From Antedon mediterranea (taxonomy: Eukaryota; Animalia; Echinodermata), in the NCBI RefSeq assembly GCF_964355755.1, contig NC_092680.1, forward strand, positions 20,717,045 through 20,781,044: 64,000 bases of DNA, given 5' to 3'. Both the position numbers and the translations under genes were made by a program. Below are positions 1 through 61,443 of this stretch, in pieces; position 1 is the stretch's first letter; every line of letters begins with the position of its first letter. Below the pieces are notes generated by a model. The model was not told where the DNA came from. It was given only the letters and a program-made list of their open reading frames with translations, and did no database searches.

Positions 1-3000
1 AATTTTAAACCCAGAATCCCCCTTTAATAATAATAATACATTTTACTCTGTTATGTTAGGTTTACAATATATACTATATTATTCATTATTATGATATTAC
101 AGGTATAACATTCTCAATGCAGTAAATAATCCTAATTACAGTATTTTTATTGATAAACAAGAAACAAAAAGTGATTAATTGATATTGCAACTTAATTCTG
201 TAGTAAATTTGTTGCAGTTAAGTTCATTAATTTACATCATTGTCTACCTTTGTTACAGTATCTTTACATAGTAATTTATGTAATCTTAGGAATCGTTATA
301 CAGAGTCTTGAAAATAATTGTATTTTGAAATGAGTAAATTATTTCATTTTTGATCCAATATAAGAAAACACAAAGTATGTAATAAGTATGTGTAAATGTG
401 TGTATGTACTGTCATACAGTAATTGTGTATTATTGTAAATAAAACAATTACCTTATTTTGCAATGATGCCCCATGCTGTTGTATGAGGAATGTCACTATT
501 TCCAAGGTACACTTTCCATAATACATATACAAATGAAGTGGAGTGTCTCCATCCTTGATGAACAAAATCATAATCATAAGTTCAATTATATTGATAAAAT
601 CTATATAAGTAATTGATAAGTGCTAAATAGACACAAAAAAAAGTATGTAATAAATGTATGTAAGTTTGTGTATGTACTGTCATAAAGTAATTGTGTATTA
701 TTGTAAATAAAACAATTACCTTATTTTGCAATGACAATGATGCACCATGCTGTTGTATGAGGACTTTCACTATTTCCAAGGTACAATTTATATTTCCCAC
801 ATACAAATGAAGTGGAGTGTCTCCATCCTTGATGAACAAAATCATAATCATAAGTTCAATAATATTTATAAAATCTATATAAGTAATTGATAAGTGCTAA
901 ATAGACACACAAAAAAAGTATGTAATAAATGTATGTAAGTTTGTGTATGTACTGTCATAAAGTAATTGTGTATTATTGTAAATAAAACAATTACTATAGC
1001 AAAACACATCTCATCACAGATGGTAAAGTATACTGTGTGTATTCTCTTGCAACTTAATCCTGTAGTAAATTTGTTGCAGTTAAGTTCATTATAATTTACA
1101 TCATTGTCTACCTTTGTTACAGTATCTTTACATAGTAATTTATGCAATCTTAGGAATCGTTATACTTAGTCGTGAAAATAATTTCATTTTGAAATGAGTA
1201 AATTATTTCTTTTTTGTTAATCCAATACAAGAAAACAAATAAGTATGTATATAAGTATGTGTAAATGTGTGTATGTACTGTCATACAGTAATTGTGTATT
1301 ATTGTAAATAAAACAATTACCTTATTTTGCAATGACAATGATGCACCATGCTGTTGTATGAGGAATTCCACTATTTCCAAGGTACAATGTTGATAATACA
1401 CATACAAATGAAGTGGAGTGTCTCCATTCTTGATGAACAAAATTATAATCATAAGTTCAATATATTAATAACAGCTATATTAGTAATTGATAAGTGCTAA
1501 ATAGACAACCAATAAATGTATAGCAAAACACATCTCATCACAAATGGTAAAGTATACTGTGTGTATTCTCTTGCAACTTAATCCTGTAGTAAATTTGTTG
1601 CAGTTAAGTTCATTATAATTTACATCATTGTCTACCTTTGTTACAGTATCTTTACATAGTAATTTATGTAATCTTAGGAATCGTTATACTTAGTCGTGAA
1701 AATAATTTCATTTTGAAATGAGTAAATTATTTCTTTTTTGTTAATCCAATACAAGAAAACAAATAAGTATGTATATAAGTATGTGTAAATGTGTGTATGT
1801 ACTGTCATACAGTAATTGTGTATTATTGTAAATAAAACAATTACCTTATTTTGCAATGACAATGATGCACCATGCTGTTGTATGAGGAATTCCACTATTT
1901 CCAAGGTACAATGTTGATAATACACATACAAATGAAGTGGAGTGTCTCCATTCTTGATGAACAAAATTATAATCATAAGTTCAATATATTGATAACAGCT
2001 ATATAAGTAATTGATAAGTGCTAAATAGACAACCAATAAATGTATAGCAAAACACATCTCATCACAAATGGTAAAGTATACTGTGTGTATTCTCTTGCAA
2101 CTTAATCCTGTAGTAAATTTGTTGCAGTTAAGTTCATTATAATTTACATCATTGTCTACCTTTGTTACAGTATCTTTACATAGTAATTTATGTAATCTTA
2201 GGAATCGTTATACTTAGTCGTGAAAATAATTTCATTTTGAAATGAGTAAATTATTTCTTTTTTGTTAATCCAATACAAGAAAACAAAAAAGTATTTAATA
2301 AGTATGTGTAAATGTGTGTATGTACTGTCATACAGTAATTGTGTATTATTGTAATTAAAACAATTACCTTATTTTGCAATGACAATGATGCCCTATGCTG
2401 TTGTATGAGGAATTTCACTATTTCCAAGGTATAATATCTACTACTCACATACAAATGAAGTGGAGTGTTTCCATCCTTGATAAACAAAATCATAATCATA
2501 AGTTCAATAATATTGATTAACAGCTATATAAGCAATTGATAAATGCTAAATAGCCAAAGAATAAATCTATAGCAAAACACATCTCATCACAAATGGTAAA
2601 GTACACTGTGTGCATTCTCGTGCAACTTAATCCTGTAGTAAATTTGTTGCAGTTAAGTTCATTATAATTACATCATTGTCTACCTTTGTTACAGTATCTT
2701 TACATAGTAATTTATGCAATCTTATGAATTGTTATACTTAGTCTTGAAAATAATTGCATTTTGAAATGAATAAATTATACATATCTTTTTGTTGATATAA
2801 TACAAGAAAAAAAAAAGTATTTAATAAATGTATGTAAGTTTGTGTATGTACTGTCATAAAGTAATTGTGTATTATAAAACAATTACCTTATTTTGCAATG
2901 ACAATGATGCCCCCTGCTGTGTTATGAGGAATTTCACTATTTCCAAGGTACAATGTTCATAACCCAAATACAAATGAAGTGGAGTGTTTCCATCCTTGAT

Positions 3001-4892
3001 AAACAAAATCATAATAATAAGTTCAATATATTGATAACAGCTATTATAAGTAATTGATAAGTGCTAAATAGACAACCAATAAATGTATAGCAAAACACAT
3101 CATCTCATCACAAATGGTAAAATATACGTAGTCCTGAAAATAATTAATTTTGAAATAAATAAATCATTTCCTTTTTGTTGATCCAATACAAGAAAACAAA
3201 TAAGTATGTAATAAGTATAAATAATAAATATAATAAATAAACAAATAAGTATGTGTAAGTTTGTGTATGTAATGTCATACAGTAAGTGTATAATAGAACA
3301 CATATTATAGTAAGAAGGCTATCAAAGGCAATGCAATGATCCATATTAGGTGAAATGCCTTTTAATGAACCAATCAATTTATGGTACATTTTTATATGTT
3401 TTATGATGTAAATTATTTTATTTGCTATTTTGTTGTTATTAATATATTACAAATAGTTAAAGACTTAAAGTAGAACTGAAAAAATCTTTATATAATTATA
3501 ATAATCATGAAGTTTAAAAAAAAAAACTAGATAAAAGATTTTTCCGACACATTAATAATTATACATTTTACTCTGTTATGTTAGGTTTACAATATATACT
3601 ATATATTATTCATTATTATGATATTACAGGTATAACATTCTCAATGCAGTAAATAATCCTAATTACAGTATTTTTATTGATAAACAAGAAACAAAAAGTG
3701 ATTAATTGATATTGCAACTTAATTCTGTAGTAAATTTGATGCAGTTAAGTTCATTAATTTACATCATTGTCTACCTTTGTTACAGTATCTTTACATAGTA
3801 ATTTATGTAATCTTAGGAATCGTTATACAGAGTCTTGAAAATAATTGTATTTTGAAATGAGTAAATTATTTCATTTTTGATCCAATATAAGAAAACAAAT
3901 AAGTATGTAATAAGTATGTGTAAATGTGTGTATGTACTGACATACAGTAATTGTGTATTATTGTAAATAAAACAATTACCTTATTTTGCAATGACAATGA
4001 TGTACCATGCTGTTGTACGAGGACTTTCACTATTTCCAAGGTACAATGTTGATAATACACATACAAATGAAGTGGAGTGTCTCCATTCTTGATGAACAAA
4101 ATCATAATCATAAGTTCAATATATTAATAACAGCTATATTAGTAATTGATAAGTGCTAAATAGACAACAACAAAAAAGTATGTAATAAATGTATGTTCGT
4201 TACAGTATCTTTACATAGTAATTTATGCAATCTTATGAATTGTTATACTTAGTCTTGAAAATAATTTCATTTTGAAATGAGAATTATTTCTTTTTGTTGA
4301 TCCAATACAAGAAAACAAATAAGAATGTAATAAGTATGTGTAAATGTGTGTATGTACTGTCATACAGTAATTGTGTATTATTGTAAATAAAACAATTACC
4401 TTATTTTGCAATGACAATGATGCCCCATGCTGTTGTATGAGGAATTTCACTATCTCGAAGGTATAATATATATTTCTCACATACAAATGAAGTGGAGTGT
4501 TTCCATCCTTGGTGAACAAAATCATAATCATAAGTTCAATAATATTGATAAAATCTATATAAGTAATTTATAAGTGCTAAATAGACAAACAATAAATGTA
4601 TAGCAAAACACATCATCTTATCACAAATGGTAAAATATACGTAGTCCTGAAAATAATTAATTTTGAAATAAATAAATCATTTCCTTTTTGTTGATCCAAT
4701 ACAAGAAAACAAATAAGTATGTAATAAGTATAAATAATAAATATAATAAATAAACAAATAAGTATGTGTAAGTTTGTGTATGTAATGTCATACAGTAAGT
4801 GTATAATAGAACACATATTATAGTAAGAAGGCTATCAAAGGCAATGCAATGATCCATATTAGGTGAAATGCCTTTTAATGAACCAATCAATT
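1..4892 (-). repeat. Ankyrin exon-intron tandem array, gene A distal block (8 exons)
   Basis: Units of about 270-1100 bp with near-identical intron blocks, each with one 102- or 108-nt ankyrin exon. Confidence 0.95.
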
Positions 4893-7800
4893 TTGTCGAG
4901 ATATTTTATCTTGCCAAGTCGACATAAATATGACTATTATGTCGACATAGTAACCATTATATGTCTACATAGCGAGATAGCTTATCTTGCCAAGTTGACT
5001 TCCTAATAACTACATGTCGACTAGACTAGATAGATTAACTTGCCAAGTTGACTATACTTCGACACTTGGAGCGTCCAAGTGCCATCCATTTGGCGACTTG
5101 TCGAGATAATTTATCTTGTCAAGTCGACATAAATATGACGACATCTAGATTATCTTGCCAAGTTGACTTTTCCAATGAGTTTATGTCGACATGACATGCT
5201 AGACTATCTTGCTAAGTTGACTTCACACAAGAGTGTATATCGACATAGGTATAGAAACAACAGCAGAATAAAGATACGTTGCCGCCAAGCAGAACATGTC
5301 TTGGCAAGTTGATGCTCAACGCGCGACACACGTGGGAAAATCTTTTTACTCGCCACCACATTGACAACCAACCATGATGGAAGGTGAAGACATCCCGGTC
5401 CTTGTGCATTTTGGCCAGCATGCCAAAAAAATGTTTGTAAAAAAAAGTAGTGGGAAAATGGAGATATTGGAGAAATGTGCTGAGGTACGTAAGGAAAAAT
5501 TTAAGCGTCTTTTGTTGCTTATTCTTGATTATGTTTTGTTTTGTTATTTGCAATTTCTCACTTAACTAGGCCTAGGCTATACTCTATCTATCCTGGGTGA
5601 CCCTATCCTCCCAGGTCTAACTGAAAACAACTTTAAACAACCGTAGGCCACCTTCTGTGTACCATGGCTAGCTTGCCCTGTACTTTATTGTTTGTACTGA
5701 TTTCCTATTATAAATAGAGATACTGTATTATTCATTTTTTTCTTCTTCTGGTTACCCAAATTAAATTTTCATGGTAACATAAACAATCATACAGTCAATC
5801 AAGGGGGAAGAGGGCTAATACATTAGTAAATTGATGCAATTCATTCATTTAAATCACAACTAGCAGTTAGTAAAACTGAATTGCATATGATGTACAATTG
5901 ATAACATGTAAACAGGTATATATAGATAAATGGGGAAAGAAATAAAATTAACAGCCAAATCAAAAGTTGTTGGGTAACAATTATTTAATTATTAATATTA
6001 TTTTCATTTATTTTATGTTTTTTATTTCAGTTATTTCCTGAGACAGAAAGCTTTTTTCTTCAAATTTTTGATGATGAGTTTGAAGAATGGGTTGATATAG
6101 GTGACACAACCTTAATTGTCAAAAAGACAGTCCTGAAAATGTTTGAAAAGGGTAAGAACCTAAACATTAATACATTTTAATGTGATGAGAAGTTATATCA
6201 TAAAACATAAAATATACAAATTTCATCACTCATCAGTTCAGGTAGGCATTACAAATGGAAAAATGAATGGCCTTCTGCAATTAGTAACTGTAACATAAAA
6301 TTCAGGAATCAGAGGAATAAACCATGACACAAAAGTGAACCCAAGAGGTTACCAAACCAATCACCAATGTGTGTGTAGGCCTACATGTTATTAACTTGTC
6401 TGTTTATTATTGTTGTAAATTACAGAAGAAAGACCCAGTAAAAGAGCAGCAGGAGCATCATCATCCTCTGATGATGAAAGAGGTAACCATAAGATGTTTA
6501 TTTAAATATTAGTCTAAACTTTAAAAATGTTCTAGTGTTGGTTACTATAATAACTATTATATAATGTATATTCAGAACAGGAAAATGTTAATTTATTTTC
6601 ATTCTTCATTGAAATACATAATATCTTGTAAAACCAAACAATATAAAAAGACAAAAAAGCAATAAAAATATTGCTTGCTTATCAACCTTACGCATCCAGA
6701 ACAAAAAGTTAAAATGATAATTAAATATACAATTTCAAGTATCAATAAATCAAACACACATTTAAGAGAATATTAGTGTAACATTTAATTATTTATTCAT
6801 TCATTTTTTATTTACAGGAAAGAGTCTGCTGCAAAAAATTTCTAATATCAAAAAAAAATTTAAGACAAAGCAATCAACAAAACCCAAAAAAACAAAACCT
6901 GTGGACGTAACAGTACAAATGGGCTGGTTGCATTTCAACATGAAAAAGAAGGAATATACACAAGTAAGAGCAATCAAAGGGGGAGGAACTACAACCGTAC
7001 GCACCAACAGATATTCAACGATTCAAGAAATTATTGAGTTGGGTACAAACATGTTCTTTCAAAATGGAAATTCCATATTTGGAAAACTTGATCAAATGTC
7101 CGTCCATTTAGCAGATTATCGTGCAAATGTTATAGATACAGAAGATTGGAGGCTAGATAACATTTTGGAAGCAGGTGTAAAAGTACGCCTGTATCTCTGT
7201 TCTAAACTTATAAAGGTAAGAATCATAATTATGTGTATGATCTATTTGTATACAATATTCCCTTGCCTTCCCATACAATGTATTCTTCCACCTGGCAAGT
7301 TGATACATGTGTGTGCTTTTATCAGCATAATATATATTATTATTATGACTTTTTTGTTTTAATTTAGTTTTTTGGTTATTTTATTTGTATTCATTATGTC
7401 CAGCTACTGATACCCACAGCATTGTCATTTTTTTCAGTAATTTGCCTTTGGAATAATTAATAAAAAATAAATAAATATAATATATAAATAAACACATGTT
7501 ATATATATTATATAATAAAGCTAAATCAAAACGATAAAGTAAAACAGCCAGAACGAAATTGCAGAGATTGGTAAGAACACTACCTTTTCTCGGTGCGAAA
7601 TATGTATCTATTTAAACATTTTAATAGCATACAATATTATAGTTTTCAGTTAGTTTGCATACATTTTTTATGCTTAATTTTAAGGTTGAAACATCCGATG
7701 GCAGCTGCAGTGACAGTAGTGAACTGCCCGATCCAGGATTATTAGGTAATTTTTTTAATTCATTTCATATGATACAAAAACAAAAAATATTATAATACAC

Positions 7801-10800
7801 ATGTGTGTACTTTTTTTCCAAAATAATAGCAGGGGTACAGTTTGAAACATTGAATAGCACGATGTTTGTTTTCTTCTTGTTTTGTATTAGATATTTTATG
7901 CAGTATCTATAATATATATAAACCGATATCTTTGTTTTCAGAATGCAGCAATAATATAGTACAATAATTTGATTTGGGACATTCATTTACAAATTGTTAA
8001 AATGAACAGTATAAGTATAAAAGTTGCACATAAAAAATCGCAAATGGAAAAAATATCAAGGTTTCCAAAACTGACTCATTTGATGGAGAGTCATTTGACT
8101 GTCTCAGGGTTGTCTTTCTTATTTGTCTGGTGGGACGTACTTTATGCTATGTATCATTGTGAAATAGAAATCTTTTGATACATTGTCAAAAATGAACCAA
8201 TAATTACTTTTAATTAAATTGAAGCTAACTAGTACTGTAGTTAAATCCTAATATTTAAATAAAAGATGCAGGAACTGTGTTTCTACTTATTTCCATAAAA
8301 TGTTGCTTATCTGCATATGCATTTTATATATCTTCCTGTAGCCGGACCATCAAGTTCTTTCTCCACTCCAGAATCTCCACAACCGCTTGAAACTCGTACT
8401 CCAGAATCTCCACAACCGCTTGAAACTCGTACTCCACAACCTCTTGAAACTTGCAAGCCACAACCTCTTGAAACTCAACCAGCCGGAACACCAACAGTAT
8501 GTATTTTCATTTAAATTGAGTTGTTTAGCATGTCACTATTTAGGCCATGACATATTTGGTTGTGATAATTTGATTTGATGTTAAAGGTAAAACTTTATTG
8601 TAAATTTATTGTTTTATCTTGATAATACAGTATCAATAAGAAATTTTTCTTACAAAAAACGCAGCTTGAATATTTACAGCATTACACATAAGTAATATAC
8701 AAAATTAATTACAACATGACATTTGACTTACCAAAAAACTAAACTCCTCTTTTAACACTAATTAATAGTGTTATAAGGCAAATTTATTTTGCATTATTTA
8801 ATATTATTAAAAACATAACGCAAATGAAAAGTGTGGATCACCAACCAAAACTAAGAAAAGTATAGGTCTAGGCCTTACATGTAGTCTGGTAAAAAATCAC
8901 CTGCACCATGGTATAAAAATGTACCCAAATAATATAATATAATATCATCTTTAGGTCCTATGTATATTGTTATAACATTTGTTATTGCTAAGTGTTTAGC
9001 CAGGCCATGGACCTACCTATAAAATGCATTATTATTGAATTAAAAAAAAAGTATTACATGTTTTACATTAATCCACGCTAATATTGCAATCTTTATATAA
9101 CCATATATCTGCTAAGCAAAGAAACTCTTATATGAATTTCAACATTATTTAGAAATATCAGTTTAAAAACTAAACTACGAAAGAGAAACATATACACTGT
9201 ATTTTACTTAACTATAGTGAAGTGCACACTCTTTCAGATAGACTCTCTATTCCCAGATGCACATCCAAATACTCCTTTTTTTAGCCTTAGTAAACTATAA
9301 GCTACCGCATTGTAACTGTTTCCTAATGCTTTCGTTCTCATGAATATAACTGCCTAAAGAAGCAGTACGAAAATACATTCTATAAAACATTTTTTTTCAG
9401 TATATTTCTATTTTGAATACCTCATTGGCAAGGTATATTCTATGCATTTGGTAAAAGATATTTCAAATTTTACCAAAATGGTTTAAATCATTAAACGACA
9501 CTATTAAAGGCTATGTTGTTTATTTAATTTTGCTTTTTTTTACATTTTAACCAGCTCTAAATTTGTTTCGTTTTACCTAAGATATGCAACTTTTATTTCA
9601 TTTATACAGATTATTTTCAAGACATCTCCTGAGGACTTATGCGGCATATGCTGTGATAGGCAAAAAAGTTGTTTTTTTATCACATGTGGACATACAATTT
9701 GTTTGCCATGCGCAACATACTTTGAGGAAACTAACACCAAGGAATGTCCTTTTTGTAAACAAGTAATTACTACTGTTCGCCACTTGTACTGAAAGTACAT
9801 ATGAATATCTGGTTGGTGTTTTTTTTAAACTGTTTTTATTTTTTTATTTATTACAATAATGTTCTTAAGGTTTATTTTAACAGAATATATTATTCATACC
9901 TCGTTTTATTTTAATTGGTGTTATGCTCAACGAATAATTATATGGTTATTATAGTCAATATAATTGATAAATAGAAACCTGTTATATACGGTACTATACT
10001 AAAAAGGAATGTTTTTTTTTAAATAGTTTAAAAATTGTTTAAATCAGATTGTAATTATATTTACTAATATTGCTAATTTTGGTGATGAGAGCTTAAACTA
10101 ATTTTAGAATTATATATCTTAATAAAAAGTACATCAATCACTGATAATAAATAATTTAAAAAATTGAAAAAAACATTAACAATGAGTCTTATGTTGTTAT
10201 TTCATGTTTAAAAAAATGTATAATACATTCCATATAATTGGAGATAAAAACTGCCACTTTCTGACCAGATTGCTAAATATTCGTATAGTATGAAAATATT
10301 CGCCCAACAGCTACCGAGATATAAAATGTGCTCTGAGTCAACAATATTTGTACCTGTTATATGTCAAAGTTCAAAATAATAATTATTGTCATTGTATTGG
10401 TTTTTATTGTATCAGAGCAATATAAACTAATTCTTTAAGAGTAATTTATGATCAAAATATCACATTCATGACCAGTGGTTGCTGAGATCACATGACAATT
10501 TTCTTGATAAGTGGTCAAAAAGGGGTTTAAGGTCACTTTGGAAAAAGATGTTCATTAGAATGAATAGAAATATAGGTCTTATGAGTATGTTGAAACCAAC
10601 TTTTTTTCAGTACACCCAGTAGTTCTGCAACCATGTTAACATTTGGACCGGTCTGTACTGACCAAGCATTCCCAATGTTTTTTTCAGCCAACAGCAAAAA
10701 ATTGATTTATATTGATATTAAGGAAGCAAAAAAAAAACCATATGAATAATAGTTATTGATGTTATTTATGCTAGATGATGCAGGTAAACCCTTTCTGGCT

Positions 10801-27470: not shown

Positions 27471-27653
27471 ATGCCAATTTAAACAGACGAGAGGTAACGG
27501 TAATAAAAATATAGAATCTTTGTTATTCCTTTTGACCATTTACACACAAAATGCGGAGTGGACAGGCGGTTTCCGTTCAGGATATATTATACGTTGGACA
27601 AGCTACGCGGTTTCCCACTTACTGTCTCAACGTTTGTCTGTGTAAATTGGCCT
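27471..27653. mobile_element. MITE (PIF/Harbinger-like) upstream of gene A
   Basis: TIR ATGCCAATTTAAACAGAC / GTCTGTGTAAATTGGCCT with TAA flanks; counterpart at 61802-61990. Confidence 0.7.
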
Positions 27654-33151: not shown

Positions 33152-33508
33152 TTTATTTTATTTTATTTATTTTATGTCTTTAGGCAATGTGGCCAAGGAT
33201 TACCAATAGTGAATTAATCACTGTCCTATCAGATAGGTGGTAATCCTCCTGATACAGGGGCTATTGTGTGAACCAGTTCACCGGGGTAACCCCCTACTCT
33301 TTTTCGAATAATGAACTGGGTTCTTTAAAGTACACACAGGTTATAACTGTGTACACTGGACCTACGGTTTATAGTCCTTATCCGAGAAGACTTGTTCCAC
33401 CACCAGAACTAGGAGCGAGTCGGCCTCGAACCCTTGCCGATGTTGTTGTTGGCTCTTTAGATACGGTAAACGGCGCCCCTGCCTTAACCGCTTGGCCATA
33501 TGACTCGC
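33152..33508 (-). mobile_element. tRNA-derived SINE with Deu/Nin-like central domain
   Basis: Minus strand: A box TGGCCAAGCGG, B box GGTTCGAGGCC, GCGAGTC/GACTCGC stem; core CTCGGATAAGGACTATAAACCGTAGGTCC and TCGAAAAAGAGTAGGGGGTTACCCCGG; (TAAA)n tail. Confidence 0.75.
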
Positions 33509-45299: not shown

Positions 45300-45809
45300 T
45301 ATATATTGATTTGGTACTTTGTAGTTCGTCTTCATCTTATTCTTTTTCAAAGTTTTAACAAATGATTGCAATTTATTCTTCCCTTAGAATGCCCCTTTCT
45401 TCAAGATCTAGTATCACAGTCCACTGGTTGTCACGTTGTTTCCTAGAAACATCATTTAGATGAATGAGCTTTGTTACATTGTCTTGGGAAAAGCATTTTG
45501 CCGAAATCTATCGGCTTCTGTCGATACGTAATTGTAACATTTGTTACATGATGGTCGTATTCATCAAACGCGTTCTTAAGATATTTGTTAGCCTCAAGAG
45601 CACCTTGGGTACCGGTGACATTGCTGATATCGATAAGAACTTTAAAGTTGGTAGTGGTAAGATAGCCAGCCTGTTTCAACAAATTACTCCATGGTGGTAT
45701 CAGCCTTCTGTAGAGCATTGTAAGGTGTTATCAGATCTTTTCACAACACCTTCATCATATCAAGTGAGTCATGCTCATCATACCAATTGTCTGAATTTAT
45801 GATGTGATT
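45300..45809 (-). pseudogene. Decayed second tandem-DED-like exon downstream of the gene B stop
   Basis: Acceptor at 45811-45810; remnants FRQL, LKQAGYLTTTNFKVLIDISNVTG, ITYRQK, QWTVILDLEERGIL resemble exon 47266-46712 but carry stops and frameshifts; 3' end approximate. Confidence 0.6.
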
Positions 45810-45917
45810 CTGTATAAAAACAATACTTAATATATTAACATGATATTGTAGACATTGGTACACGAACGAGTAAGTAACAATCTATGTAGTTATTTTACTT
45901 AATATAAATATCGTTAC

Positions 45918-46505
45918 CTCCAAAAATCCTCAATGACACTAACTCTGACTTCGACTCTGACTTTGGCACTTACTCATGCTTTGGCTTTAGCTTTGGCACT
46001 GGCACCGACGTCTTTAGTTCTGGCTTTGGCACTGACTCTGGCTTTGGCGCTGGCACTGGCTTTAGATCTGACTCTGGTTTTGGCACTGACTCTGGCCTTG
46101 GCGCTGGCACCGGCTTTAGCTCTGACTCTCGCTTGGGCACTGACTCTGGCTTTGGCGCTGGCACTGGCTTTAGCTCTGATTCTCGCTTTAGCACTGACTC
46201 TGGCCTTGGCGCTGGCACCAGCTTTAGCTCTGACTCTCGCTTTGGCACTGACTCTCGCCTTGGTTTTAGCATTGGCTTTGGCGCTGGCACTGGCTTTAGC
46301 TCTCGCTTTGGCACTGACTCTGGCCTTGGCTTTAGCCTTGGTTTTGGCGCTGGCACCGGCTTTAGATCTGACTCTGGCTTTGGCACTGACTCTGGCCTTG
46401 GCGCTGGCACCGGCTTTAGCTCTGACTCTGGCTTTGGCACCAACTCTGACTCTAGATCTGATGCTGGCAATGATCCTAGCTTTGGTACTGGTTCTTTAGT
46501 AGGGC
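45918..46505 (-). repeat. Coding low-complexity repeat exon (PKPES/PVPA)n with in-frame TAA at 45972-45970
   Basis: Expanded copy (588 nt) of the 99-nt linker exon 47967-47869; same ends PTKEPVPK...VSLR(V/I)FG. Confidence 0.85.
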
Positions 46506-49500: not shown

Positions 49501-52500
49501 TCAATTCTACAAAGACATCAAAGAGATCTTCATCTTCGTTTCTCCACAAATAACGTAGTAACTTTTCCTCAAGAACCCCTTCATTGCTCAGCTTTTCCCA
49601 TAGCATCTGTAATTGCTTCCGATCTTCTGCTTCATTCTGTGCACAAAAAACACAGTAAATATAGAACAACTGATATATTAAAGCAACCAATATAATACCA
49701 AGTTTCAAAACTATAGAAGGCTACATTATTCTGGGTCATATTATTTTACTCTAATGTGAAATCTAGTATTATATATAATATTCCATGCCTATTATATATA
49801 CCTACCACCTCAATAGTTGGCGTAACTACTGTGATAACTTTAGTCAAAATTTGAATCATCCAGCAAAGATTTGTTATCACAATGTCTCTTAATTTCTCAT
49901 TATTCCTGGTATACATGATTATTCCAGTGTCATTCAGATACGTTATCACAGTGGTGAGCACATGTTCGGATATTCCACATTGAGTTGCCATCTCAGATAC
50001 CTAATACAGAATTAACATTTTATTATAATGGTATTACACGAAATTCACTCGACAAATAATAAAACAGGAAAGTACTAGTTTAGTACAGTAATAGTAGTTA
50101 CTGCAACTACAAGTCACTGTATTGGAAATATTATACCAGCTGCTCACGACCGTGTTAAAATGTTTGATTATAATTATTCACTTTCTAAAGTAAACATTCA
50201 GAGTACACATACAACAATTTGAAATGACAGGATACTCTAATTTGCACATATTGCTTCAAATTATCCTAAAATGGCATTTGTTTAAAAACGTTTGTATATA
50301 TACTGCTAATCTGATTTACATCTGCCTATGTTTACATGAAAACCAAATTCATTCAACCCTTACCTCTTTCAAGGTAATGTACAATCTTGTTTTTCCAATT
50401 ATTTGCAACTTTTCCTGCAAATTAACCCACTTTACAGGAACTTTCTCCACCATTGCTTTCATGTATCTACCAACGTTTCGTTTAAGTTTTTCAATACCTT
50501 CATGTGACTTTAAAGTGTTATCCACCATGTACATTTCACGATCTACATGCTTGGCATACGGCATTCCTTTCATTGCATCAAACATCTGCATGAACATCCC
50601 CTCAGCCTTTATTTGATGAAATTGTATAATCATAACATTACTAATTAATAAAGTATGTTTCTTTTCTTTCTTATACTACAAATTTGTTCAGTTTTATTGA
50701 ATAGTTATATAAATGTATACTACAGTTATTACCTTTATCTGTTTTTCTGTTGGTGTTCCTGACAATTTGTCCATATGTGTAGCAATCAAACAGATTGGAG
50801 GTGACTCTATGCTCTTGTCATCAACCAAAATGGGATTTCCTAAATCATGTTGTAACACAGTATGTTCATAGATGGACCTTATCCAGAACAAATTCATGTC
50901 CAAATTGGTCATTCCGAGTGAATCCTGAAATCAAAATCAAATTGTAATTTAAAGTTTACTAACATTATAACTATAATCAATACCAAGTTATGTTTTAAAT
51001 TAAACAATTGACTGTGAATAAATTTGACTTACTATTGACGAATCTCGTGGATTAGCTAATTCATTCAAGTTGTTCGTAACACAAAATGCCACACAATACG
51101 ACACTTTATTTGTGAGGAAAAACTAAAAAAACACAAAAGGCTAATAATGACCATATAATTTTTCCAGTTGGAATTTAAGATTCATTGTAGTTATCTGTGA
51201 ATGTCAAAATGGTCAAAATGTTATACATTGATGTGGGTTTATTTGTAGTAATTACATTACATTGTTTGTTGATAATATTTCCATATATTATTTAAACTTA
51301 AGAAGTTAACAAATGAAATTAGTCTTATCAACAGTATACCCATAAAGGCCAACTCAGACAGCATCGTACAATGAGGCCTGACGAGAAAATTAAACATTTT
51401 TAATGTTTTCCCAACAATCTAAAAACTATGCTCGACGCTATATGAAGACAACTCGTCAGGCCTCGTCTCGTCAACTCAGACAGAACCAATGAGTCAAGAC
51501 CTTTGGTTGGGCCTTAAGAAGGAAGCAAATGATACACTTTATTTAACTATACGCATAAGAAAGAAGCAAAAGATGCACATCTAGTTTTAAATATGATTTT
51601 ACAACACAAATTATCCCAAAATAAAAATAAACATACCCTGTGTGTTATGTAGTAGTCTAGTTGACCAGCGTAGTCCCATATAGTAGTTATGTCACTCACA
51701 TCTACTTTTCCTGTTGCCTTTGTAAAACCTTTCCATGCAATATTCACAACTTTAGCCCAGATTGTGCCATTGCCTTTTAAACACAATAAAAAAAATCACT
51801 ATGGTAATATTGCTTGATCAACCTAAATCTGCATATATAAAAAATAATAACATTCTAATGTTTTAGTATGTGCTTACCTTCATCTAATTCCTTTTCTAAT
51901 GCATTTGCACGAATTTGCTTGGATAGTTCAACACCTTTAATACAAAGCAAGAAAAATGAAACATGTATATTTATAGATCAACAATATTTAAAAATGAAAT
52001 ACATGTTTAAATACATTCTAACATTGTTCTATCATTCTGAACAATGCTTTGTTAGTTTGTTTGATGTAACTCACCATCTACATCTTTCACTTTTTTCCAC
52101 TCTCTACAATCCTTCTTTGTTGCTTGAAACACTGTAGTTGTTACGATACCATCGGTTGATGGCTCTCTGGAATTGAAGCTAATATAACAATGTATAGTAA
52201 AGTTAAACATAATTAAAGAATATTCAAGACTGAAACATATATTATTTACTGAAAAACAGAAATTATAAAAAAATTAAAAAGGCAATCCTAGCTAGCATAG
52301 GTTTACTTTTATACAACTATGCACTTGAGTAAAAAGTTAATACAAAAAATCATCTAATAATAATGTTTAAAATACAAAAATACTAATATTAAACAGGATT
52401 TTACAGTTTCTAAGTTTTCAATAATTCTGTCTGAAAATTCAATTCAATTCAACAGGGAATAATGTTTTTGAATAAGCAAACAGGCTTTCTTTTCAAAGTA

Positions 52501-55500
52501 CTATTGATACATTACTACAACAAATACTTATCGATTTTTTCAGGGAAGAGTGACAATAATTTTAGTATTCCCTGGTTATCTATTACCTTTCACCAAGCAT
52601 AGCCTTTACACAACTAGTCTTGCCAGCACCTTCTTTCCCAAGAAACATACATCTTGAATTCACAACTGCAATTTCACCATTTTGAAGCTCATATTTGTAT
52701 ATTTTAATAGCATATTTACCCTTGGAATATATCTCTGCTGGAACTAATATTTCTAATAAAAAAATATTATTATAACACTTTCAAAATGTCAAATTTCAAA
52801 TTCATTTTTTATTTGTTTTCATACATACCCTCTTACAAGCTAATAATATTAACATCTAAATAGACATTGATAAATAATTTAATTTTTGTCAAAGATGTAT
52901 TGTTCCCCCCAAAACATGAAAAATGAAGACTTTGAATAAGCCATTATCCAGTTATAATAAAGTTATTCAAATTCGTGGAGATAAAAAGAACAAAAATAAT
53001 AATAATTTCACATAACAGGCAAAATAATGTTTGACCGACAATTATGACTATTTTTGGCTTTCAAGTAGGCTACTGTAAATCAATATTTTTTTCGATCCAA
53101 ATTTTGGTCAAAGTGAACTAGCATATTTACCATTGGAATATACTGCTGGAATTAATAAATGTAATATAAAAATATCAAAATTTTAAACAATTTCAAATAT
53201 TGTTATTGTTCATAAATAACCTCCTACAAGTTAAAAATAACAAAGTAAGGCATCACTTACTGTCAAAGTCAAATTTTAAAATCTTCTTTCTTTCATCTGG
53301 GTATATGTATCTATTATTTTCTAAAACAGTCATTGGTGTATTTCCTTCCTATAAACAAATTAATGTTTTAGTTAGTATTAACAAATAATATGAATTGATA
53401 ATATTTGCTACTGAGCGGTACTATCCAGACACCATTATCAAATAAAAACCATTATCAATAGTAGACTATGATATCTATAAATGTGAAAGAGACACACATG
53501 CTAGTATGCTTCATATACAGACACTACTACTTGATAGACCCTACCATTAAAACAATGGTGATTTCATGCACTCTCAAAGTCAGATTAAATAGCAAACTCC
53601 TTTATTGTATTTATTTATTATTAATTAATTAATTTTTAAATTTAACAATTCAACGACATCAAATGAATAATAATAATTTTAAAACGGATATTGTCACTTT
53701 TTAATATATTGGTATCTTTGTTAAACAATAAAAACATATTGGTAAGGTATGGTAGGGACCCTTTCCAAATCTATTTGTGGTACACCCAAAATATCCATAT
53801 CTCTTCACACTACAAAGTTGCATATAATGGTGTGTGTAAATTTATTTCTTTTCTATTGGAAAGGAAATCGGAGATAAATCGGATAGAACCCATATTATAG
53901 TAAGAAGTCTATAAAGGCAATGCGATGATCAAAGGGCAAACTGCTTTTTAGTGAACTACCGTAATCAATACATTTTTATATATTTCATGATGTAAATTAT
54001 GTTATTTGCTAGTTTGTTGTTATTGTATTACAAATAGTTAAAGACTAAAAGTAGAACTGAAAAAATCTTTATATAACTATAATAATCATGAAGTTTTAAA
54101 AAAAACTAGATAAAATATTTTTCTGACACATTAATAATAATAATACATTTTACTCTGTTGTGTTAGGTTTACAATATATACTATATATTATTCATATTAT
54201 GATATTATACCATTCTCAATACAGTAAATAATCCTAATTACAGTATTTTTAATGATAAACAAGACACGTGCAGGAAGTGATTAATTGATTATCGTTATCA
54301 TGAGTGAGAGAAAATATGGCTACAGTTACTGTAACCATATTTTATAGTAAGAATTATCTTTGTAACCTTATGAAATGTTATACCTAGTCTTGAAAATAAT
54401 TTCAATTTGAAATTAGTAAAATTACTTCTTTTTTGTTGATCCACTACAAAAAAAACCCAAACAAGTATGTAATAAGTATGTTGAAGTTCGTGTATGTACT
54501 GTCACACAGTAATTGTGTATTATTGTAAATAAAACAATTACCTTATTTTGCAATGACAATGATGCACCATGCTGTTGTATGAGGAATTTCACTATTTCCA
54601 AGGTACAATATATATTTCCCACATACAAATGAAGTGGAGTGTTTCCATCCTTGATAAACAAAATCATAATCATAAGTTCAACAATATTGATAACAGCTAT
54701 ATAAGTAATTGATAAGTGCTAAATAGACAACCAATAAATGTATAGCAAAACACATCTCATCACAGATGGTAAAGTATACTGTGTGTATTCTCTTGCAACT
54801 TAATCCTGTAGTAAATTTGTTGCAGTTGGTTCATTATAATTTACGTCATTGTCTACCTTTGTTACAGTATCTTTACATAGTAATTTATGCAATCTTATGA
54901 ATTGTTATACCTAGTCTTGAAAATAATTTCATTTTGAAATGAGTAACTTATTTCTTTTTTTGTTGAGCCAATACAAGAAAACAAATAAGTATGTTTAAGA
55001 TTGTGTAAGTACTGTCATACAGTAAATGTATAATTGTGAAAAAAAAATTACCTTATTTTGCAATGTTAGTGATTCACCATCCTGTACGAGGCATGTCACT
55101 ATTTCTGATGCAGGTATATATCTATTACTCACATACAAATGAAGTGGAGTATTTCCATCCTTGATGAACAAAATCATAATCATAAGTTCAACAATATTGA
55201 TAACAGCTATATAAGTAATTGATAAGTGCCAAATAGACAACCAATAAATGTATAGCAAAACACATCTCATCACAGATGGTAAAGTATACTGTGTGTATTC
55301 TCTTGCAACTTAATCCTGTAGTAAATTTGTTGCAGTTGGTTCATTATAATTTACGTCATTGTCTACCTTTGTTACAGTATCTTTACATAGTAATTTATGC
55401 AATCTTATGAATTGTTATACCTAGTCTTGAAAATAATTTCATTTTGAAATGAGTAACTTATTTCTTTTTTGTTGAGCCAATACAAGAAAACAAGTAAGTA

Positions 55501-58500
55501 TGTTTAAGATTGTGTAAGTACTGTCATACAGTAAATGTATAATTGTGAAAAAAAAAATTACCTTATTTTGCAATGTTAGTGATTCACCATCCTGTACGAG
55601 GCATGTCACTATTTCTGATGTAGGTATATATCTATTACTCACATACAAATGAAGTGGAGTATTTCCATCCTTGATGAACAAAATCATAATCATAAGTTCA
55701 ATAATATTAATAACAGCTATATAAGTAATTGATAAGTGCTAAATAGACAACCAATAAATGTATAGCAAAAAACATCTCATCAAAAATGGTAAAGTATACT
55801 GTGTGTATTCTCTTGCAACTTAATCCTGTAGTAAATTTGTTGCAGTGTAAATTCATTATAATTTACATCATTGTCTACCCTACAGTATCTTTACATAGTA
55901 ATTTATGCAATCTTATGAATTGTTACACCTAGTCTTGAAAATAATTTCATTTTGAAATGAGTAAATTATTTCTTTTTTGTTAATCCAATACAACAAAACA
56001 AGTAAGTATGTAAATAAGTATGTGTAAGTTTGATGCGGAATTTCACTATTTTCAAGGTACAATATATATTTCCCACATACAAATGAAGTGGAGTGTTTCC
56101 ATCCTTGATAAACAAAATCATAATCATAAGTTCAATAATAATAATTAATTCCTTTTTGTTGATCCACTACAATAAAAAAGAAAAAAAAAAGTATGTAATA
56201 AGTATGTGTAAATTTGTGTATGTACTGTCATACATTAAGTGTTTATTAGTGAAAAAATTACCTCATTTTGCAATGTTAATGATGAACCTTGATTTATAAA
56301 GAATGTCACTATTTCCAAGGTACACTTTCCATAACACAGATAAACATGAAGTAGAGTGTTTCCATTCTTGATAAACAAAATCATAATCATAAGTTCAATA
56401 ATATTTATAAAATCTATTATAAGTAATTGATAAGTGCTAAATAGACAACCTATAAATTTATAGCAAAACACATCTCATCACAAATGGTAAAGTATACTGT
56501 GTGTATTCTCTTGCAACTTAATCCTGTAGTAAATTTGTTGCAGTTAAGTTCATTATAATTTACATCATTGTCTACATTTGTTACAGTATCTTTACATAGT
56601 AATTTATGCAATCTTATGAATTGTTATACTTAGTCTTGAAAATAATTTCATTTTGAAATTAGTAAATTTTTTCTTTTTTGTTAATCCAATACAAGAAAAC
56701 AAATAAGTATGTAATAAGTATGTGTAAATGTGTGTATGTACTGTCATAAAGTAATTGTGTATTATTGTAAATAAAACAATTACCTTATTTTGCAATGACA
56801 ATGATGCACCATGCTGTTGTATGAGGACTTTCACTATTTCCAAGGTAAAATTTATATTTCCCACATACAAATGAAGTGGAGTGTTTCCATCCTTGATAAA
56901 CAAAATCATAATCATAAGTTCAATAATATTGATAAAATCTATATAAGTAATTGATAAATGCTAAATAGACAACCAATAAATGTATAGCAAAACACATCTC
57001 ATCACAAATGGTAAAGTATACTGTGTGTATTCTCTTGCAACTTAATCCTATAGTAAATTTGTTGCAGTTTAAATTCATTATAATTGTAATAAATGTATGT
57101 AAGTTTGTGTATGTACTGTCATAAAGTAATTGTGTATTATTGTAAATGAAACAATTACCTTATTTTGCAATGACAATGATGCACCATGCTGTTGTATGAA
57201 GACTTTCACTATTTCCAAGGTACACTTTCCATAACACAGATAAAAATGAAGTGGAGTGTTTCCATTCTTGATAAAAAAAATCATAATCATAAGTTCAATA
57301 ATATTGATAACAGCTATATAAGTAATTGATAAGTGCTAAATAGACACAAAAAAAAAAGTATGTAATAAATGTATGTAAGTTTGTGTATGTACTGTCATAA
57401 AGTAATTGTGTATTATTGTAAATAAAACAATTACCTTATTTTGCAATGACAATGATGCCCCATGCTGTTGTATGAGGACTTTCACTATTTCCAAGGTACA
57501 ATTTATATTTGTCACATACAATTGAATTGGAGTGTTTCCATCCTTGATGAATAAAATCATAATCATAAGTTCAATAATATTGATAACAGCTATATAACTA
57601 ATTGATAAGTGCTAAATAGACAACCAATAAATGTATAGCAAAACACATCTCATCACAGATGGTAAAGTATACTGTGTGTATTCTCTTGCAACTTAATCCT
57701 GTAGTAAATTTGTTGCAGTTAAGTTCATTATAATTTACATCATTGTCTACCTTTGTTACAGTATCTTTACATAGTAATTTATGCAATCTTATGAATTGTT
57801 ATACTTAGTCTTGAAAATAATTGCATTTTGAAATGAATAAATTATACATATCTTTTTGTTGATCTAATACAAGAAAAAAAAAGTATGTAATAAATGTATG
57901 TAAGTTTGTGTATGTACTGTCATAAAGTAATTGTGTATTATTGTAAATGAAACAATTACCTTATTTTGCAATGAAAATGATGCAACATTCTGTTGTATGA
58001 GGACTTTCACTATTTCCAAGGTACACTTTCCATAACACAGATAAAAATGAAGTGGAGTGTTTCCATTCTTGATAAACAAAATCATAATCATAAGTTCAAT
58101 AATATTGATAACAGCTATATAAGTAATTGATACATATCTTTTTGTTGATCTAATACAAGAAAAAAAAAGTATGTAATAAATCTATGTAAGTTTGTGTATG
58201 TACTGTCATAAAGTAATTGTGTATTATTGTAAATGAAACAATTACCTTATTTTGCAATGACAATGATGCAACATTCTGTTGTATGAGGACTTTCACTATT
58301 TCCAAGGTACACTTTCCATAACACAGATAAAAATGAAGTGGAGTGTTTCCATTCTTGATAAACAAAATCATAATCATAAGTTCAATAATATTGATAACAG
58401 CTATATAAGTAATTGATAAGTGCTAAATAGACAACAACAAAAAAGTATGTAATAAATGTATGTAAGTTTGTGTATGTACTGTCATAAAGTAATTGTGTAT

Positions 58501-61443
58501 TATTGTAAATAAAACAATTACCTTATTTTGCAATGACAATGATGCACCATGCTGTTGTATGAGGACTTTCACTATTTCCAAGGTACAATTTATATTTCTC
58601 ACATACAAATGAAGTGGAGTGTCTCCATCCTTTATAAACAAAATCATAATCATAAGTTCAATAATATTTATAAAATCTATATAAGTAATTGATAAGTGCT
58701 AAATAGACAACCAATAAATGTATAGCAAAACACATCTCATTACTAATGGTAAAGTATACTGTGTGTATTCTCTTGCAACTTAATCCTGTAGTAAATTTGT
58801 TGCAGTTAAGTTCATTATAATTTACGTCATTGTCTACCTTTGTTACAGTATCTTTACATAGTAATTTATACAATCTTATGAATTGTTATACTTAGTCGTG
58901 AAAATAATTTCATTTTGAAATGAGTAAATTATTTCTTTTTTGTTAATCCAATACAACAAAACAAATAAGTATGTAATAAGTATGTCTAAGGGTCATTCTT
59001 CAGTAAGTGTCTAAAATCGTGTCCCGATACTTTGGTGGGATAGAGACTGAAAATTCATCAATAAAAAATAAAAATTCTTGACTTAAATCATAATCAACAT
59101 TATTGTTAATATAATTAATTACATAAAACAAAGATAATTACATTGATATTCTTAATTTTTATAAAAATGTTTCAGGCAACCCCCTAAAATCTTATGTCCC
59201 GATCGTACATCTTCAATTTTATGATCGCCGTATATATTTGATAACAGGACTTTTGTTATCGAAAATATTGTAAAAAGTTAGTTAATCATGATTTCATGCG
59301 ATTATCTCTACATACATTAAATCTCAAACTTTAAAGTTTTTGTTTGGAAAAAGCTTGTCCCGCAGTTTTGTGTCATTTCCGTCACATAATTTAAATGTAC
59401 CGTCTACAGTTTAATGAATGGCGGAAAAAAAATTGACTGTGCGTTGTAAACATACGAAGATATTGAAATTAAACTAGCCGCACATCATTTTCAATAAAAG
59501 AGGAAAAAAGCTAAAAAAACGAGGTTTTAGAAAAATTACAGCTGCGTACCTTTATTGAATGTCATATCCGAACGGTATAGAACTCATTAAATAATTATAA
59601 TTTCTGTTTTTTTTTCAACTGGAAGTACAAGTTATTCACGGTATCTAGAAGTATGCAATCCGTCTCCGCTGTCAGACATGCCTACGATGTGATCCTAGGC
59701 TGTCCAATGCTAAATACATCATCTCCGTCACGGTCAGCTCCGTCACATTTCCCAATGTTTCGTTGTGACGGAGATGACGGCCCGTGACGGATATGACTTT
59801 TTGTTATTGCCAGGGCCTTTTTTTGTTGTACATTTTGTTTTGTATATCTTTATTATGTTATTACATTGTATATCTATGTGACTCTGGTCAATAAACATAA
59901 TCAAATCATATATTAAAGTCATCTCCGTCACAAGATTTTTTAGGTTCGTCATATCCGTCACGGTTTCATCTCCGTCACATGGATATTTTATCCTTTTAAA
60001 TCCTAAAATATTTAAGTAATGAACGCAATTATGTGGTATATTGAAATATAAACAATATTCTTCTACTATGTCAATGGATAGTAATATTAGTTCAACAGAA
60101 TTTTGTAAAACATCAGTGACAGTCATACTATTTTCTGAAAATTATTATTTTTTGGAATAGTAAATGGTTTTGAACGTATAACATCATACTTATAAATGTT
60201 AAAACAATCATTTTTTTATTAATAGAGACAAAAATAATATATAGTATCAAAGAATTAATAATGGAAATAATTTTATAATTCCTGAACCATTATTTTTTCT
60301 ATCTTTGTATATTCCATAAATGTGACGGAAATGACAGTAACATAGAACCATGTATTTATAAATACGAATAAAATACGAAATATATAATAAAGATTGCGCC
60401 AAACATACGCTTGCCATGTAATACATGTTCATTTATCTGAATAAACTTTTAAAATTTAAAAAATGCAAATTTTAAAATCGATTTTTTATAAACCTGAAAT
60501 TAGACACTTACTGAAGAATGACCCCTAAATGTGTGTATAGTGAAAAAATTACCTTATTTTGCAATGTTAATGATGAACCTTGATTTATAAAGAATGTCAC
60601 TATTTCCAAGTTACAACTTCTATAATGCAGATACAAATGAAGTGGAGTGTTTCCATCCTTGATAAACAAAATCATAATCATAAGTTCAATAATATTGATA
60701 ACAGCTATATAAGTAATTGATAAGTGCTAAATAGACAACCAATAAATGTATAGCATAGCGTCATTTCATATAAGTGTGTTTTGTAAAAAGGAAACGTTCT
60801 CTGTAAATCTAAACTATGCATAATGTATGATTCTTTTTATATACCTCATCAGTAGTTTTTAAAATATCTGGATGTTTCTTGCATATTTGTTCAATTGTTT
60901 TCAAGTCCCTATTACGCACAGCGTGTTTCAACTCGTACCTGTCAAAATGCAAGAAATAATGCATTAATGTATTACCGTAGATTTGATGAGAATAACAGTT
61001 CAGGATAATATTTATAATTTTTATTTTCAGTGTAGCATATGACCATTGTACCCTGTGTTGTTTTTTTTAAATATTAATCTTTTAAATAATTATGCTTGGT
61101 TACACTTGATTCAGCCAAGGATGTTTTTCAGGCACAGCCATAAATAAACAATATAGACACAAAAGAAAACATTAAAAATATAATAATTTAGGTTAGTAAA
61201 CTCATTTCACATTGTTTTTCAATTATTATACACGTCAAAATAACATTTGAGAATGAATCTCATGGTGGATTTAAAATAAAATTTAAAAATCCCACTTCTC
61301 CATTTACAAACATTCATTCTGATTAGTATAAAATGAAATTTACATTTTAATCATTTCTATATTTTTTAATGTTAGCGTATACATCAAATCTTTGCTTGAT
61401 TTGAAGTAAAAAATAAAACAACATACCACTTAGTTGAAGACAT
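45970..61443 (-). CDS. Gene B: ankyrin repeat - ROC - COR - tandem DED-like ROCO family protein
   Basis: Exons 61443-61427 (MSSTKW), 60938-60845 (N-cap); ankyrin exons 60657-60553, 58629-58522, 58353-58246, 58067-57960, 57542-57435, 57266-57159, 56891-56784, 56366-56262, 55669-55562, 55159-55052, 54649-54542; C-cap 53348-53261; ROC 52752-52587 (P-loop GKEGAGKTS), 52178-52075 (STDGI), 51934-51878, 51773-51637 (WDYAGQ), 51122-51033, 50924-50733 (ATHMDK); COR 50606-50364, 50000-49806, 49636-49466, 49368-49066 (FLVPC), 48610-48506, 48308-48104; linker 47967-47869; death-fold exon 47266-46712; tail 46505-45970. Splice phases are consistent throughout. No kinase domain. Confidence 0.88.
46712..47266 (-). 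CDS. Tandem death-effector-domain-like exon of gene B
   Basis: FNNLKYNL..LKCCLFDVIP..ATDLFNIL..NDVTILFEV followed by LSSYRKRLF..EL..WDVVFNLE; pattern resembles tandem DEDs (recognised by eye, no HMM). Confidence 0.65.
51346..51514. mobile_element. MITE (PIF/Harbinger-like), intronic
   Basis: AGGCC...GGCCT ends, TAA on both sides, internal inverted repeat aggcctgacgag / ctcgtcaggcct. Confidence 0.65.
53890..60760 (-). repeat. Ankyrin exon-intron tandem array of gene B (11 intact exons, 1 truncated)
   Basis: Same unit family as the gene A arrays; half-exon at about 56103-56035. Confidence 0.95.
58990..60524. mobile_element. Non-autonomous TIR DNA transposon (Sola2-like), 1535 bp
   Basis: 25-bp perfect TIR GGGTCATTCTTCAGTAAGTGTCTAA, 4-bp TSD CTAA, internal CCGTCAC repeats; superfamily inferred from GRG..CYC termini and 4-bp TSD. 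Confidence 0.8.

Follow-up and report, generated by a model that had tools for sequence, protein, structure and literature searches.

A 64,000-nucleotide (nt) stretch of the Antedon mediterranea genome (Echinodermata; NCBI RefSeq assembly GCF_964355755.1, contig NC_092680.1, positions 20,717,045 to 20,781,044 of the forward strand; hereafter the window) carries two paralogous genes, here called A and B, with expandable arrays of phase-0 ankyrin exons ("cassettes") that each encode a single repeat and share a short, fast-evolving patch of codons. In gene A the array is joined to ROC and COR domains and to a predicted tandem death-effector-domain (DED) module, and the two genes are best explained as germline-shuffled intracellular immune sensors, a reading that we hold with somewhat more confidence than doubt. 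To our knowledge, a one-repeat-per-exon structure is by itself not unusual among animal ankyrin genes; what is unusual here is its union with high internal identity, exchange between copies, and a selected patch.

Six-frame scans and a BLAST search with one unit against the 64-kb window located 31 ankyrin-coding units, all on the minus strand and none inverted (0/31 BLAST matches in the opposite orientation), with 12 in gene A (60657-54542) and 19 in gene B (26300-452). An earlier reading made from the DNA letters without database searches (the sequence-only reading) had likewise counted about 31 ankyrin exons in two arrays, and all 13 of the patch motifs that it quoted are present. Its description of every exon as one complete repeat of 102-114 nt in phase 0/0 holds for 30 of the 31 units: these measure 102 nt (one), 105 nt (three), 108 nt (24), 111 nt (one), or 114 nt (one), begin and end on codon borders, and are in frame and free of stops, but the remaining unit is truncated, and both splice sites are present in only 29 of the 31. 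Among the 30 complete exons, 28 are distinct and 18 distinct patch motifs occur, the adjacent cassettes at 1952 and 1428 being identical. The observation of the cassette arrays is therefore confirmed, with corrections; their parts are as follows.

54542-60657, minus strand: gene A cassette array, 12 units (BLAST; Pfam Ank match in both of the two units tested), with unit 5' ends at 60657, 58629, 58353, 58067, 57542, 57266, 56891, 56366, 56103 (truncated), 55669, 55159, and 54649.
56038-56103, minus strand: truncated cassette of gene A, with an intact acceptor and 22 codons followed by a deletion, and no donor.
56262-56366, minus strand: recombinant cassette of gene A, with an LCYGKC patch on a 105-nt helix-2 backbone otherwise found with LHYRSC and LRYRRY.
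18201-26300, minus strand: gene B cassettes, part 1, 11 units, with 5' ends at 26300, 25786 (TT donor), 24760, 24239, 23713, 21793, 20703, 20279, 19678, 19408, and 18314.
25682-25786, minus strand: lost-donor cassette of gene B (TT for GT), its frame open.
452-4507, minus strand: gene B cassettes, part 2, eight units, with 5' ends at 4507, 4087, 2994, 2475, 1952, 1428, 827, and 553; the gene runs off the window.

Amino-acid change among the cassettes is, with certainty, concentrated in codons 10-15. Across the 30 complete cassettes, nonsynonymous diversity (piN) in these codons is 0.41 and synonymous diversity (piS) 0.093, as against 0.088 and 0.095 in the other 30 codons, and the rate of change at amino-acid sites in the patch is about 4-8 times that at synonymous sites or in introns. 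In simulations of uniform neutral change, 24 amino-acid changes within any six-codon window were reached in none of the 280 runs kept. Because the units recombine, a separate tree was fitted for each segment, which gave a ratio of nonsynonymous to synonymous substitution rates (dN/dS) of 8.5-10 for the patch (p 0.002-0.003), with a patch dS tree length (0.32-0.35) like that of the introns (0.38-0.55). Site models (M2a versus M1a) yielded a likelihood-ratio test (LRT) statistic of 22-25 on two tree sets that include the patch, placed the selected class near a dN/dS of 4, and flagged codons 11, 14, 15, 21, and 22; M2a fits on a patch-free tree (LRT 93-100) were not relied on, being inflated by recombination, and M0 estimates were left unused as an optimiser artefact, stuck at 1.00 in five of six fits. 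Diversifying selection, with dN/dS above 1 at about codons 10-15 relative to the introns, had been anticipated by the sequence-only reading and is borne out by these fits and simulations; positive selection on the patch is well but not overwhelmingly supported. The near-identity that the same reading ascribed to the flanking introns applies to the roughly 70 nt adjoining each exon, where diversity is 0.053 upstream and 0.081 downstream once three and two units with non-homologous flanks are dropped (0.093 and 0.143 with all 30 units). The gaps between units range from 158 to 1923 nt, plus one of 13.7 kb that holds a transposon.

The cassettes have been copied as single- and multi-exon blocks, recombine within exons, and are common to both genes. 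Multi-exon duplication is exemplified by 28-1521 and 18872-20373, which are 95% identical. Pairs of variable sites are incompatible more often the farther apart they lie (4% of pairs separated by 1-5 nt, 18% of those separated by more than 40 nt; 26 sequences), none of 5000 permutations showed incompatibility as low among nearby sites, and at least nine recombination events are required. Of the 11 complete gene A cassettes, seven can be paired with a twin in gene B at an identity of 95.7-98.4%, as against 82.4% for the 5' regions of the two genes, and stretches of about 630 nt, largely intronic, are 94-95% identical in A and B; exchange between genes A and B after their duplication would be the simplest reading. 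The in-frame duplication and swapping of cassettes that had been proposed from the letters alone is, at the germline level, well matched by these twins, block copies, and recombination events.

Comparison with designed ankyrin repeat proteins (DARPins), which were the top sequence and fold matches, places the patch within the repeat. In the alignment, cassette codon n corresponds to consensus position n+2, with codons 15-16 as an insertion, and the AlphaFold model of a paralog, P0006, is a DARPin-like solenoid (block-mean predicted local-distance difference test score, pLDDT, 72-92 over the repeats) in which codon 11 is the last of helix 1 and the loop leading to helix 2 spans codons 12-16. 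The patch is accordingly predicted to comprise the last turn of helix 1 and a lengthened helix 1-helix 2 loop. In a stack of repeats, the patches would together form a variable ridge that follows the rim of the ankyrin groove instead of crossing the hairpins. Position 14 is randomised in classical DARPins. In the ANK-N5C library, positions 2, 3, 5, 10, 13, and 33, on the beta-turn and helix 1, were randomised (PMC4308713). The likeness to such libraries (PMC4308713, PMC8683736) lies in an ankyrin framework that stays constant while residues putatively at its surface vary, codon 11 being equivalent to randomised position 13, which with eight states is the most variable here; positions 14 and 10 each have three states, and positions 3 and 5 alternate between D and N only. 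By contrast, cassette diversity has moved to positions 12-16 and a two-residue loop insertion, and the library positions 2 and 33 are near-invariant (position 33 is invariant, and position 2, whose codon directly precedes the splice donor, is K in 27 of 30). The variable residues had been assigned to the concave, DARPin-like binding face, an assignment that stands for codon 11, whereas half of the patch falls in the inserted loop, the hairpin positions are invariant or two-state, and codons 21-22 of helix 2 are flagged as well. The patch would thus cover only part of the DARPin binding face, leaving the "natural DARPin" picture half right; natural selection would here be diversifying the ankyrin scaffold at the helix-1 tip and the inter-helix loop (up to 24 residues in a paralog), unlike designed libraries. 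As to composition, codons 11-15 contain 24% Tyr, 18% Cys, 12% Asn, and 10% Gly, figures that come from copies that are not independent and in which AT-rich codons favour Tyr and Asn.

Around its array, gene A is made up of the following parts.

61427-61443, minus strand: first coding exon, with the ATG at 61443 and a phase 2 donor, its position deduced from the reading frame and splice signals; the gene B paralog is 27046-27068.
60845-60938, minus strand: N-capping ankyrin exon, 67% identical to P0001 residues 1-40.
58987-60527, no strand assigned: insertion of 1.5 kb, bounded by 28-nt terminal inverted repeats, within the intron that follows the first cassette.
53261-53348, minus strand: C-capping ankyrin exon, single copy in the window.
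52587-52752, 52075-52178, 51878-51934, 51637-51773, 51033-51122, and 50733-50924, minus strand: ROC GTPase exons (motifs; Pfam Roc on paralogs).
50364-50606, 49806-50000, 49466-49636, 49066-49368, 48506-48610, and 48104-48308, minus strand: exons of the ROC end and COR region (COR-A match).
47869-47967, minus strand: short proline-rich linker exon, phase 1/1.
46712-47266, minus strand: predicted tandem DED exon, phase 1/1, 184 aa.
45970-46505, minus strand: long proline-rich repeat exon, closed by an in-frame TAA (45972-45970); a GT donor follows about 50 nt further on.
45333-45812, minus strand: decayed second tandem-DED exon, with homology to the P0001 C-terminus across three frames.

Downstream of the array, an open frame of 1081 aa runs through the C-cap exon and the 15 exons that follow it, all 16 having canonical acceptors, and 799 of 799 residues of gene A exons are identical to A. 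mediterranea XP_071964213.1 (P0087). With all 11 complete cassettes included, the product would have 1512 aa, would lack an N-terminal hydrophobic stretch, and is predicted to be cytosolic. Its ROC motifs read GKEGAGKT, STDG, WDYAG, and ATHMD; Pfam Roc scored above the cut-off on the paralogs P0001, P0007, and P0009, single gene A exons gave weak P-loop matches, and P0087, which the gene A exons match exactly, scored 67.7 bits for COR-A (cut-off 35.3), the domain directly after ROC. Judged by its ROC G1-G4 motifs and COR, gene A is a ROCO gene. Each array is preceded by a pair of 5' exons coding an N-cap, and from the 82% identity of its 5' region to that of gene A we infer ROC-COR in gene B also; the earlier assignment of both paralogs to the ROCO type is thus borne out directly in gene A only, since ROC-COR was not seen for gene B, whose cap and ROC exons would lie beyond the window. 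The 184-aa module after COR is helical, has 25% identity to the DED region of P0001, and scored 0.91-0.92 against Atlas DED clusters; in a Foldseek search, caspase-8/cFLIP tandem DEDs filled the first eight places (E 0.11-0.35, model pLDDT 53), and Pfam returned no match for the exon. On this evidence the module is predicted to be a tandem DED, an effector that the sequence-only reading had missed, together with the signs of decay at the 3' end of gene A. The C-terminal modules at 45333-47967 look shuffled too, with phase-1/1 proline-rich and tandem-DED exons alternating, and in the paralog P0011 two DED modules surround a ZU5 domain in an order unlike that of gene A.

The best relatives of the window genes are A. 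mediterranea RefSeq proteins, related ankyrin-cassette proteins being found on five chromosome-scale contigs in models that carry 2-13 units in tandem. P0001, P0007, and P0009 are ankyrin-ROC-COR proteins, the first two with sub-threshold DED matches, and no kinase Pfam match was obtained in the nine family proteins scanned. The patch recurs as the site of variation in these relatives: identity between units is lowest at the patch in P0007 (eight units; 0.47, versus 0.65-0.86 on either side) and in P0027 (13 units; 0.39, versus 0.65-0.86 around it, with a patch 7-24 residues long), two arrays that were amplified separately and yet have the same patch as their most variable part, and in P0262 variation also falls, by eye, at helix-1 and patch positions. 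A phmmer search with P0006 returned mostly generic ankyrin proteins, plus two Antedon paralogs. Crinoid RefSeq "uncharacterized proteins" of ankyrin-ROC-COR(-DED) layout (A. mediterranea XP_071964214.1, XP_071964198.1, XP_071944718.1, XP_071944626.1), along with Anneissia japonica LOC117101475 and others, belong to the same family; their function is unannotated, none of the listed models contains the window arrays, and the Anneissia japonica models seen have a few divergent repeats, not near-identical cassettes. P0027 (XP_071943401.1), some of whose 13 ankyrin units bear patch-loop insertions of 17-24 residues, gave no ROC/COR Pfam match, which suggests that the cassette is also used with another C-terminus. 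Further afield, a Haliotis rufescens protein (P0013, XP_048241358.1) combines a caspase-family Pfam domain with about 28 near-identical 33-aa ankyrin repeats that vary mainly at the helix-1 end, and P0010, P0023, P0129, and many similar entries are long ankyrin-ROC proteins with internally similar repeats from metagenome contigs.

On our best reading, the design would be convergent on the brown-algal LRR-ROC-COR genes, in which each leucine-rich repeat (LRR) occupies one exon (Zambounis et al., 2012, PMC3341825; Teng et al., 2024, PMC11378527). In both systems the repeats precede ROC-COR and each is encoded by its own symmetric exon, recombination takes place within and between genes, some exons are inactivated while their neighbours are intact, and a few repeat positions are under positive selection; gene birth and death is a further shared trait, and the algal example has 13-17 repeats per gene. 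The Antedon genes differ in having ankyrin repeats rather than LRRs, phase 0 rather than phase 2 exons, and a predicted tandem DED after COR, and in belonging to an animal, and inverted exons and alternative splicing of repeat exons are documented in the algae, whereas 0/31 units are inverted here. Fungal NLRs with highly conserved ANK, WD, or TPR repeats (Dyrka et al., 2014, PMC4986451) resemble the window genes in that their ankyrin repeats are nearly identical, evolve in concert, and are positively selected at positions on the binding side, and in their sensor-NTPase-effector layout, but theirs is a NACHT/NB-ARC domain with C-terminal repeats, as against a ROC GTPase with N-terminal repeats encoded one per exon, and repeat-number polymorphism has been shown there, whereas the analysis here covered one haplotype. 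DAPK1-type ROCO proteins (PMC6320773) share the succession of ankyrin repeats, ROC-COR, and a death-fold module, although gene A starts with an N-cap ankyrin exon, has no kinase domain, possesses an expandable, hypervariable ankyrin array, and is predicted to have a tandem DED in place of a death domain. Gene A is a ROCO gene that is neither a DAPK1 nor an NLR, and, because repeat type or NTPase differs, it may be likened to the brown-algal and fungal systems without belonging to either. The comparisons with algal LRR-ROCO shuffling and fungal repeat NLRs had been drawn by the sequence-only reading and agree with the sources cited. That reading also recognised no description of an animal ankyrin-ROCO system; no description of such an exon-cassette system was found in the literature searched, whose coverage excluded most subscription journals and supplements, and passages of PMC9334734, PMC13449251, and PMC12314368 describe no such animal system.

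These features bear on two open questions, namely how invertebrates diversify intracellular recognition and what role most animal ROCO proteins play. The locus places a ROCO GTPase where an NLR has its ATPase, between a fast-evolving repeat sensor and a predicted death-fold effector, and the exon-per-repeat shuffling of brown algae has apparently been reinvented with ankyrin repeats in an echinoderm. The arrays are missing from the database gene models seen, and such systems may be overlooked in other genomes.

As a germline-shuffled sensor, the system would operate as follows. Unequal crossing-over and gene conversion in the germline would generate new cassette orders, numbers, and patch-backbone combinations, of which selection would retain new patches; transcripts would join most of the intact cassettes in tandem and would now and then skip some in frame. 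A ligand bound on the ankyrin ridge could then shift the monomer/dimer and GTP state of ROC-COR, dimer cycles having been described for ROCO proteins (PMC6320773), and clustering of the DEDs could recruit FADD/caspase-8-type partners. An immune role for the products of both genes, as rapidly reshuffled intracellular sensors, is likely on this analysis.

Several points nevertheless weigh against this interpretation. The codon and site models were our own scripts rather than PAML, and two of the codons flagged as selected, 21 and 22, sit on helix 2. The framework, with a dN/dS of 1.3-1.9 that is not different from 1, shows no net purifying selection, and a tree-free count of framework changes (38 nonsynonymous to 13 synonymous) is as neutrality predicts. 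The corresponding count for the patch, which has few synonymous sites, is at least 24 nonsynonymous to at most three synonymous changes, with a raw p of about 0.1 that is not significant before calibration by simulation. The fold resemblance to DEDs is weak (E no better than 0.11, on a low-confidence model), gene A is interrupted by a premature stop and its last DED exon is decayed, and gene B carries a 12.7-kb transposon and has its 3' half beyond the window. The RefSeq model of gene A begins 218 codons after the array and omits the cassettes, and the window cassettes occur in no protein among the listed matches of two cassette-directed searches (5 of 5 and the best 120 of 481).

Among the alternatives, the one that survives best is a repertoire generated by splicing, in which each transcript would include a variable subset of cassettes and a single gene would present many binding surfaces; it can coexist with germline shuffling, and we consider it unlikely as the principal explanation. 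The phase 0/0 of all complete cassettes means that any subset keeps the frame, and two dead cassettes must already be skipped. RefSeq isoforms X1 and X2 of a truncated paralog on another chromosome (P0006 and P0003) differ by exactly one 36-aa unit, and such isoforms generally rest on transcript evidence; this is, however, the only such pair, none being labelled in the other 16 named clusters looked up, and the tandem units of the paralog models likewise speak against the idea. Uniformly weak acceptors that might favour skipping had also been proposed, but the acceptors prove ordinary: although 30/30 end in AAG, as against 3/18 in other exons, they contain 11-12 pyrimidines in 16 positions, at or above the 8-13 of those 18 exons, and are copies of one ancestral site, and the donor is the consensus AAG|GTAATT in 27 of 30 cassettes. 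Dscam-type mutual exclusion depends on docking/selector pairing or on steric or frame-based exclusion. At these arrays no sign of any of the three was seen: the introns, at 158 nt or more, impose no steric exclusion, and docking/selector pairing was not found in a coarse duplex test of four candidate docks and two cassettes, in which one of 16 tests beat all 20 shuffles, as expected by chance. Alternative splicing of the LRR exons of brown-algal ROCO genes (PMC11378527) lends the idea a precedent. A bolder combination, in which a deuterostome invertebrate would possess a large repertoire of natural DARPin-like intracellular receptors built from germline-reshuffled cassettes and per-cell combinatorial splicing and wired through a ROCO GTPase to DED/caspase-8 death signalling, as an ankyrin-based diversifying immunity parallel to Dscam and VLR, is to be entertained only tentatively and is doubtful as a whole.

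It is improbable that the arrays are the product of neutral, decaying tandem duplication, that is, an unstable AT-rich repeat in dying genes whose patch is a mutation hotspot or an unconstrained loop. The near-neutral framework, the two broken cassettes, three insertions, premature stop, and decayed exon, the absence of the arrays from database models among the listed matches, and the position of the patch partly in a loop, where change is tolerated, would all suit it. Synonymous change in the patch is not raised, however, and in simulations of a neutral hotspot so few silent patch changes arose in 0.8-4.3% of runs (p 0.008-0.043), so that a neutral mutation hotspot is modestly disfavoured; a merely unconstrained loop would have a dN/dS near 1, not 8-10. 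None of the 30 complete cassettes has a stop or frameshift, and the downstream 1081-aa frame is intact. No stop codon occurs among at least 78 substitutions (p about 0.001, or about 0.01 without AT bias), and the five independent indels in complete exons are all in frame, as against multiples of three in 28 of 173 intron gap contexts, which are over-counted and not independent. Four of 12 exon gap contexts in the BLAST list are not multiples of three, but these were taken as offsetting patch alignment gaps or edge effects, because all 30 complete exon lengths are multiples of three. The reading frame of the cassettes is protected.

Still less probable is adaptive diversification, with the same sensor-GTPase-DED design, for a conflict other than with pathogens, such as self/non-self tissue recognition, symbiont control, gamete interaction, or a selfish element. 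The predicted cytosolic product of gene A contrasts with cell-surface proteins of allorecognition or gamete interaction, and a multi-chromosome family with death-fold effectors fits innate sensing. The selection signal itself is silent on the partner, and fungal repeat NLRs do act in allorecognition (PMC13449251). Somatic, VLR-like assembly, by which cassettes would be recombined in the DNA of individual immune cells, is very improbable: it draws on the cassette architecture only, the idea having been proposed, as untested, for brown algae (PMC3341825), whereas the cassettes here lie in order inside a gene with ordinary splice sites and 0/31 are inverted. False duplication in the assembly can be set aside almost entirely, for although the region is highly repetitive and includes the identical pair at 1952 and 1428, array segments share no exact match longer than 710 nt (the next is 419 nt), which argues against it, long duplicated blocks are at most 96.6% identical, and 28 of 30 exons are distinct.

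Gene B and its largest insertion comprise the following further features.

27046-27068, minus strand: first coding exon of gene B.
26487-26580, minus strand: N-capping ankyrin exon of gene B.
4893-17607, no strand assigned: transposon of 12.7 kb with imperfect terminal inverted repeats, in an intron of the gene B array.
15111-16400, minus strand: integrase open reading frame (ORF; rva_4, E 9e-33), intronless, 430 codons.

The terminal inverted repeats of the transposon are about 350 nt long and imperfect and consist of subunits of about 54 nt; the left end of the element is clipped. Besides the integrase ORF it contains decayed pieces that resemble retroelements and, at ~6030-9789 on the plus strand, a gene of several exons with a RING finger at its end. 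Pieces of the terminal intron of the gene A array (53883-54289) recur six times inside the gene B array (24-183, 3293-3710, 4806-4883, 17608-17931, 18613-19021, and 21004-21409), which suggests that duplication blocks repeatedly ended just short of the cap exon. Two further insertions lie in gene B introns (~21950-23270 and 24880-25680), and tandem arrays with 64-nt and 35-nt units lie at 62757-64000 and 31196-31719. Between genes A and B, a CHD1L/ALC1 chromatin-remodeller gene occupies ~29900-42000 on the minus strand. Pfam and PDB searches with an ORF at 29918-30241, which we take by eye to be BRCT-like, returned no match. Inside the CHD1L gene, a tandem array of 28 copies of 87 nt (37516-39954; 97% matches) leaves the plus strand open for 841 codons, a frame that is probably incidental because the period is a multiple of three.

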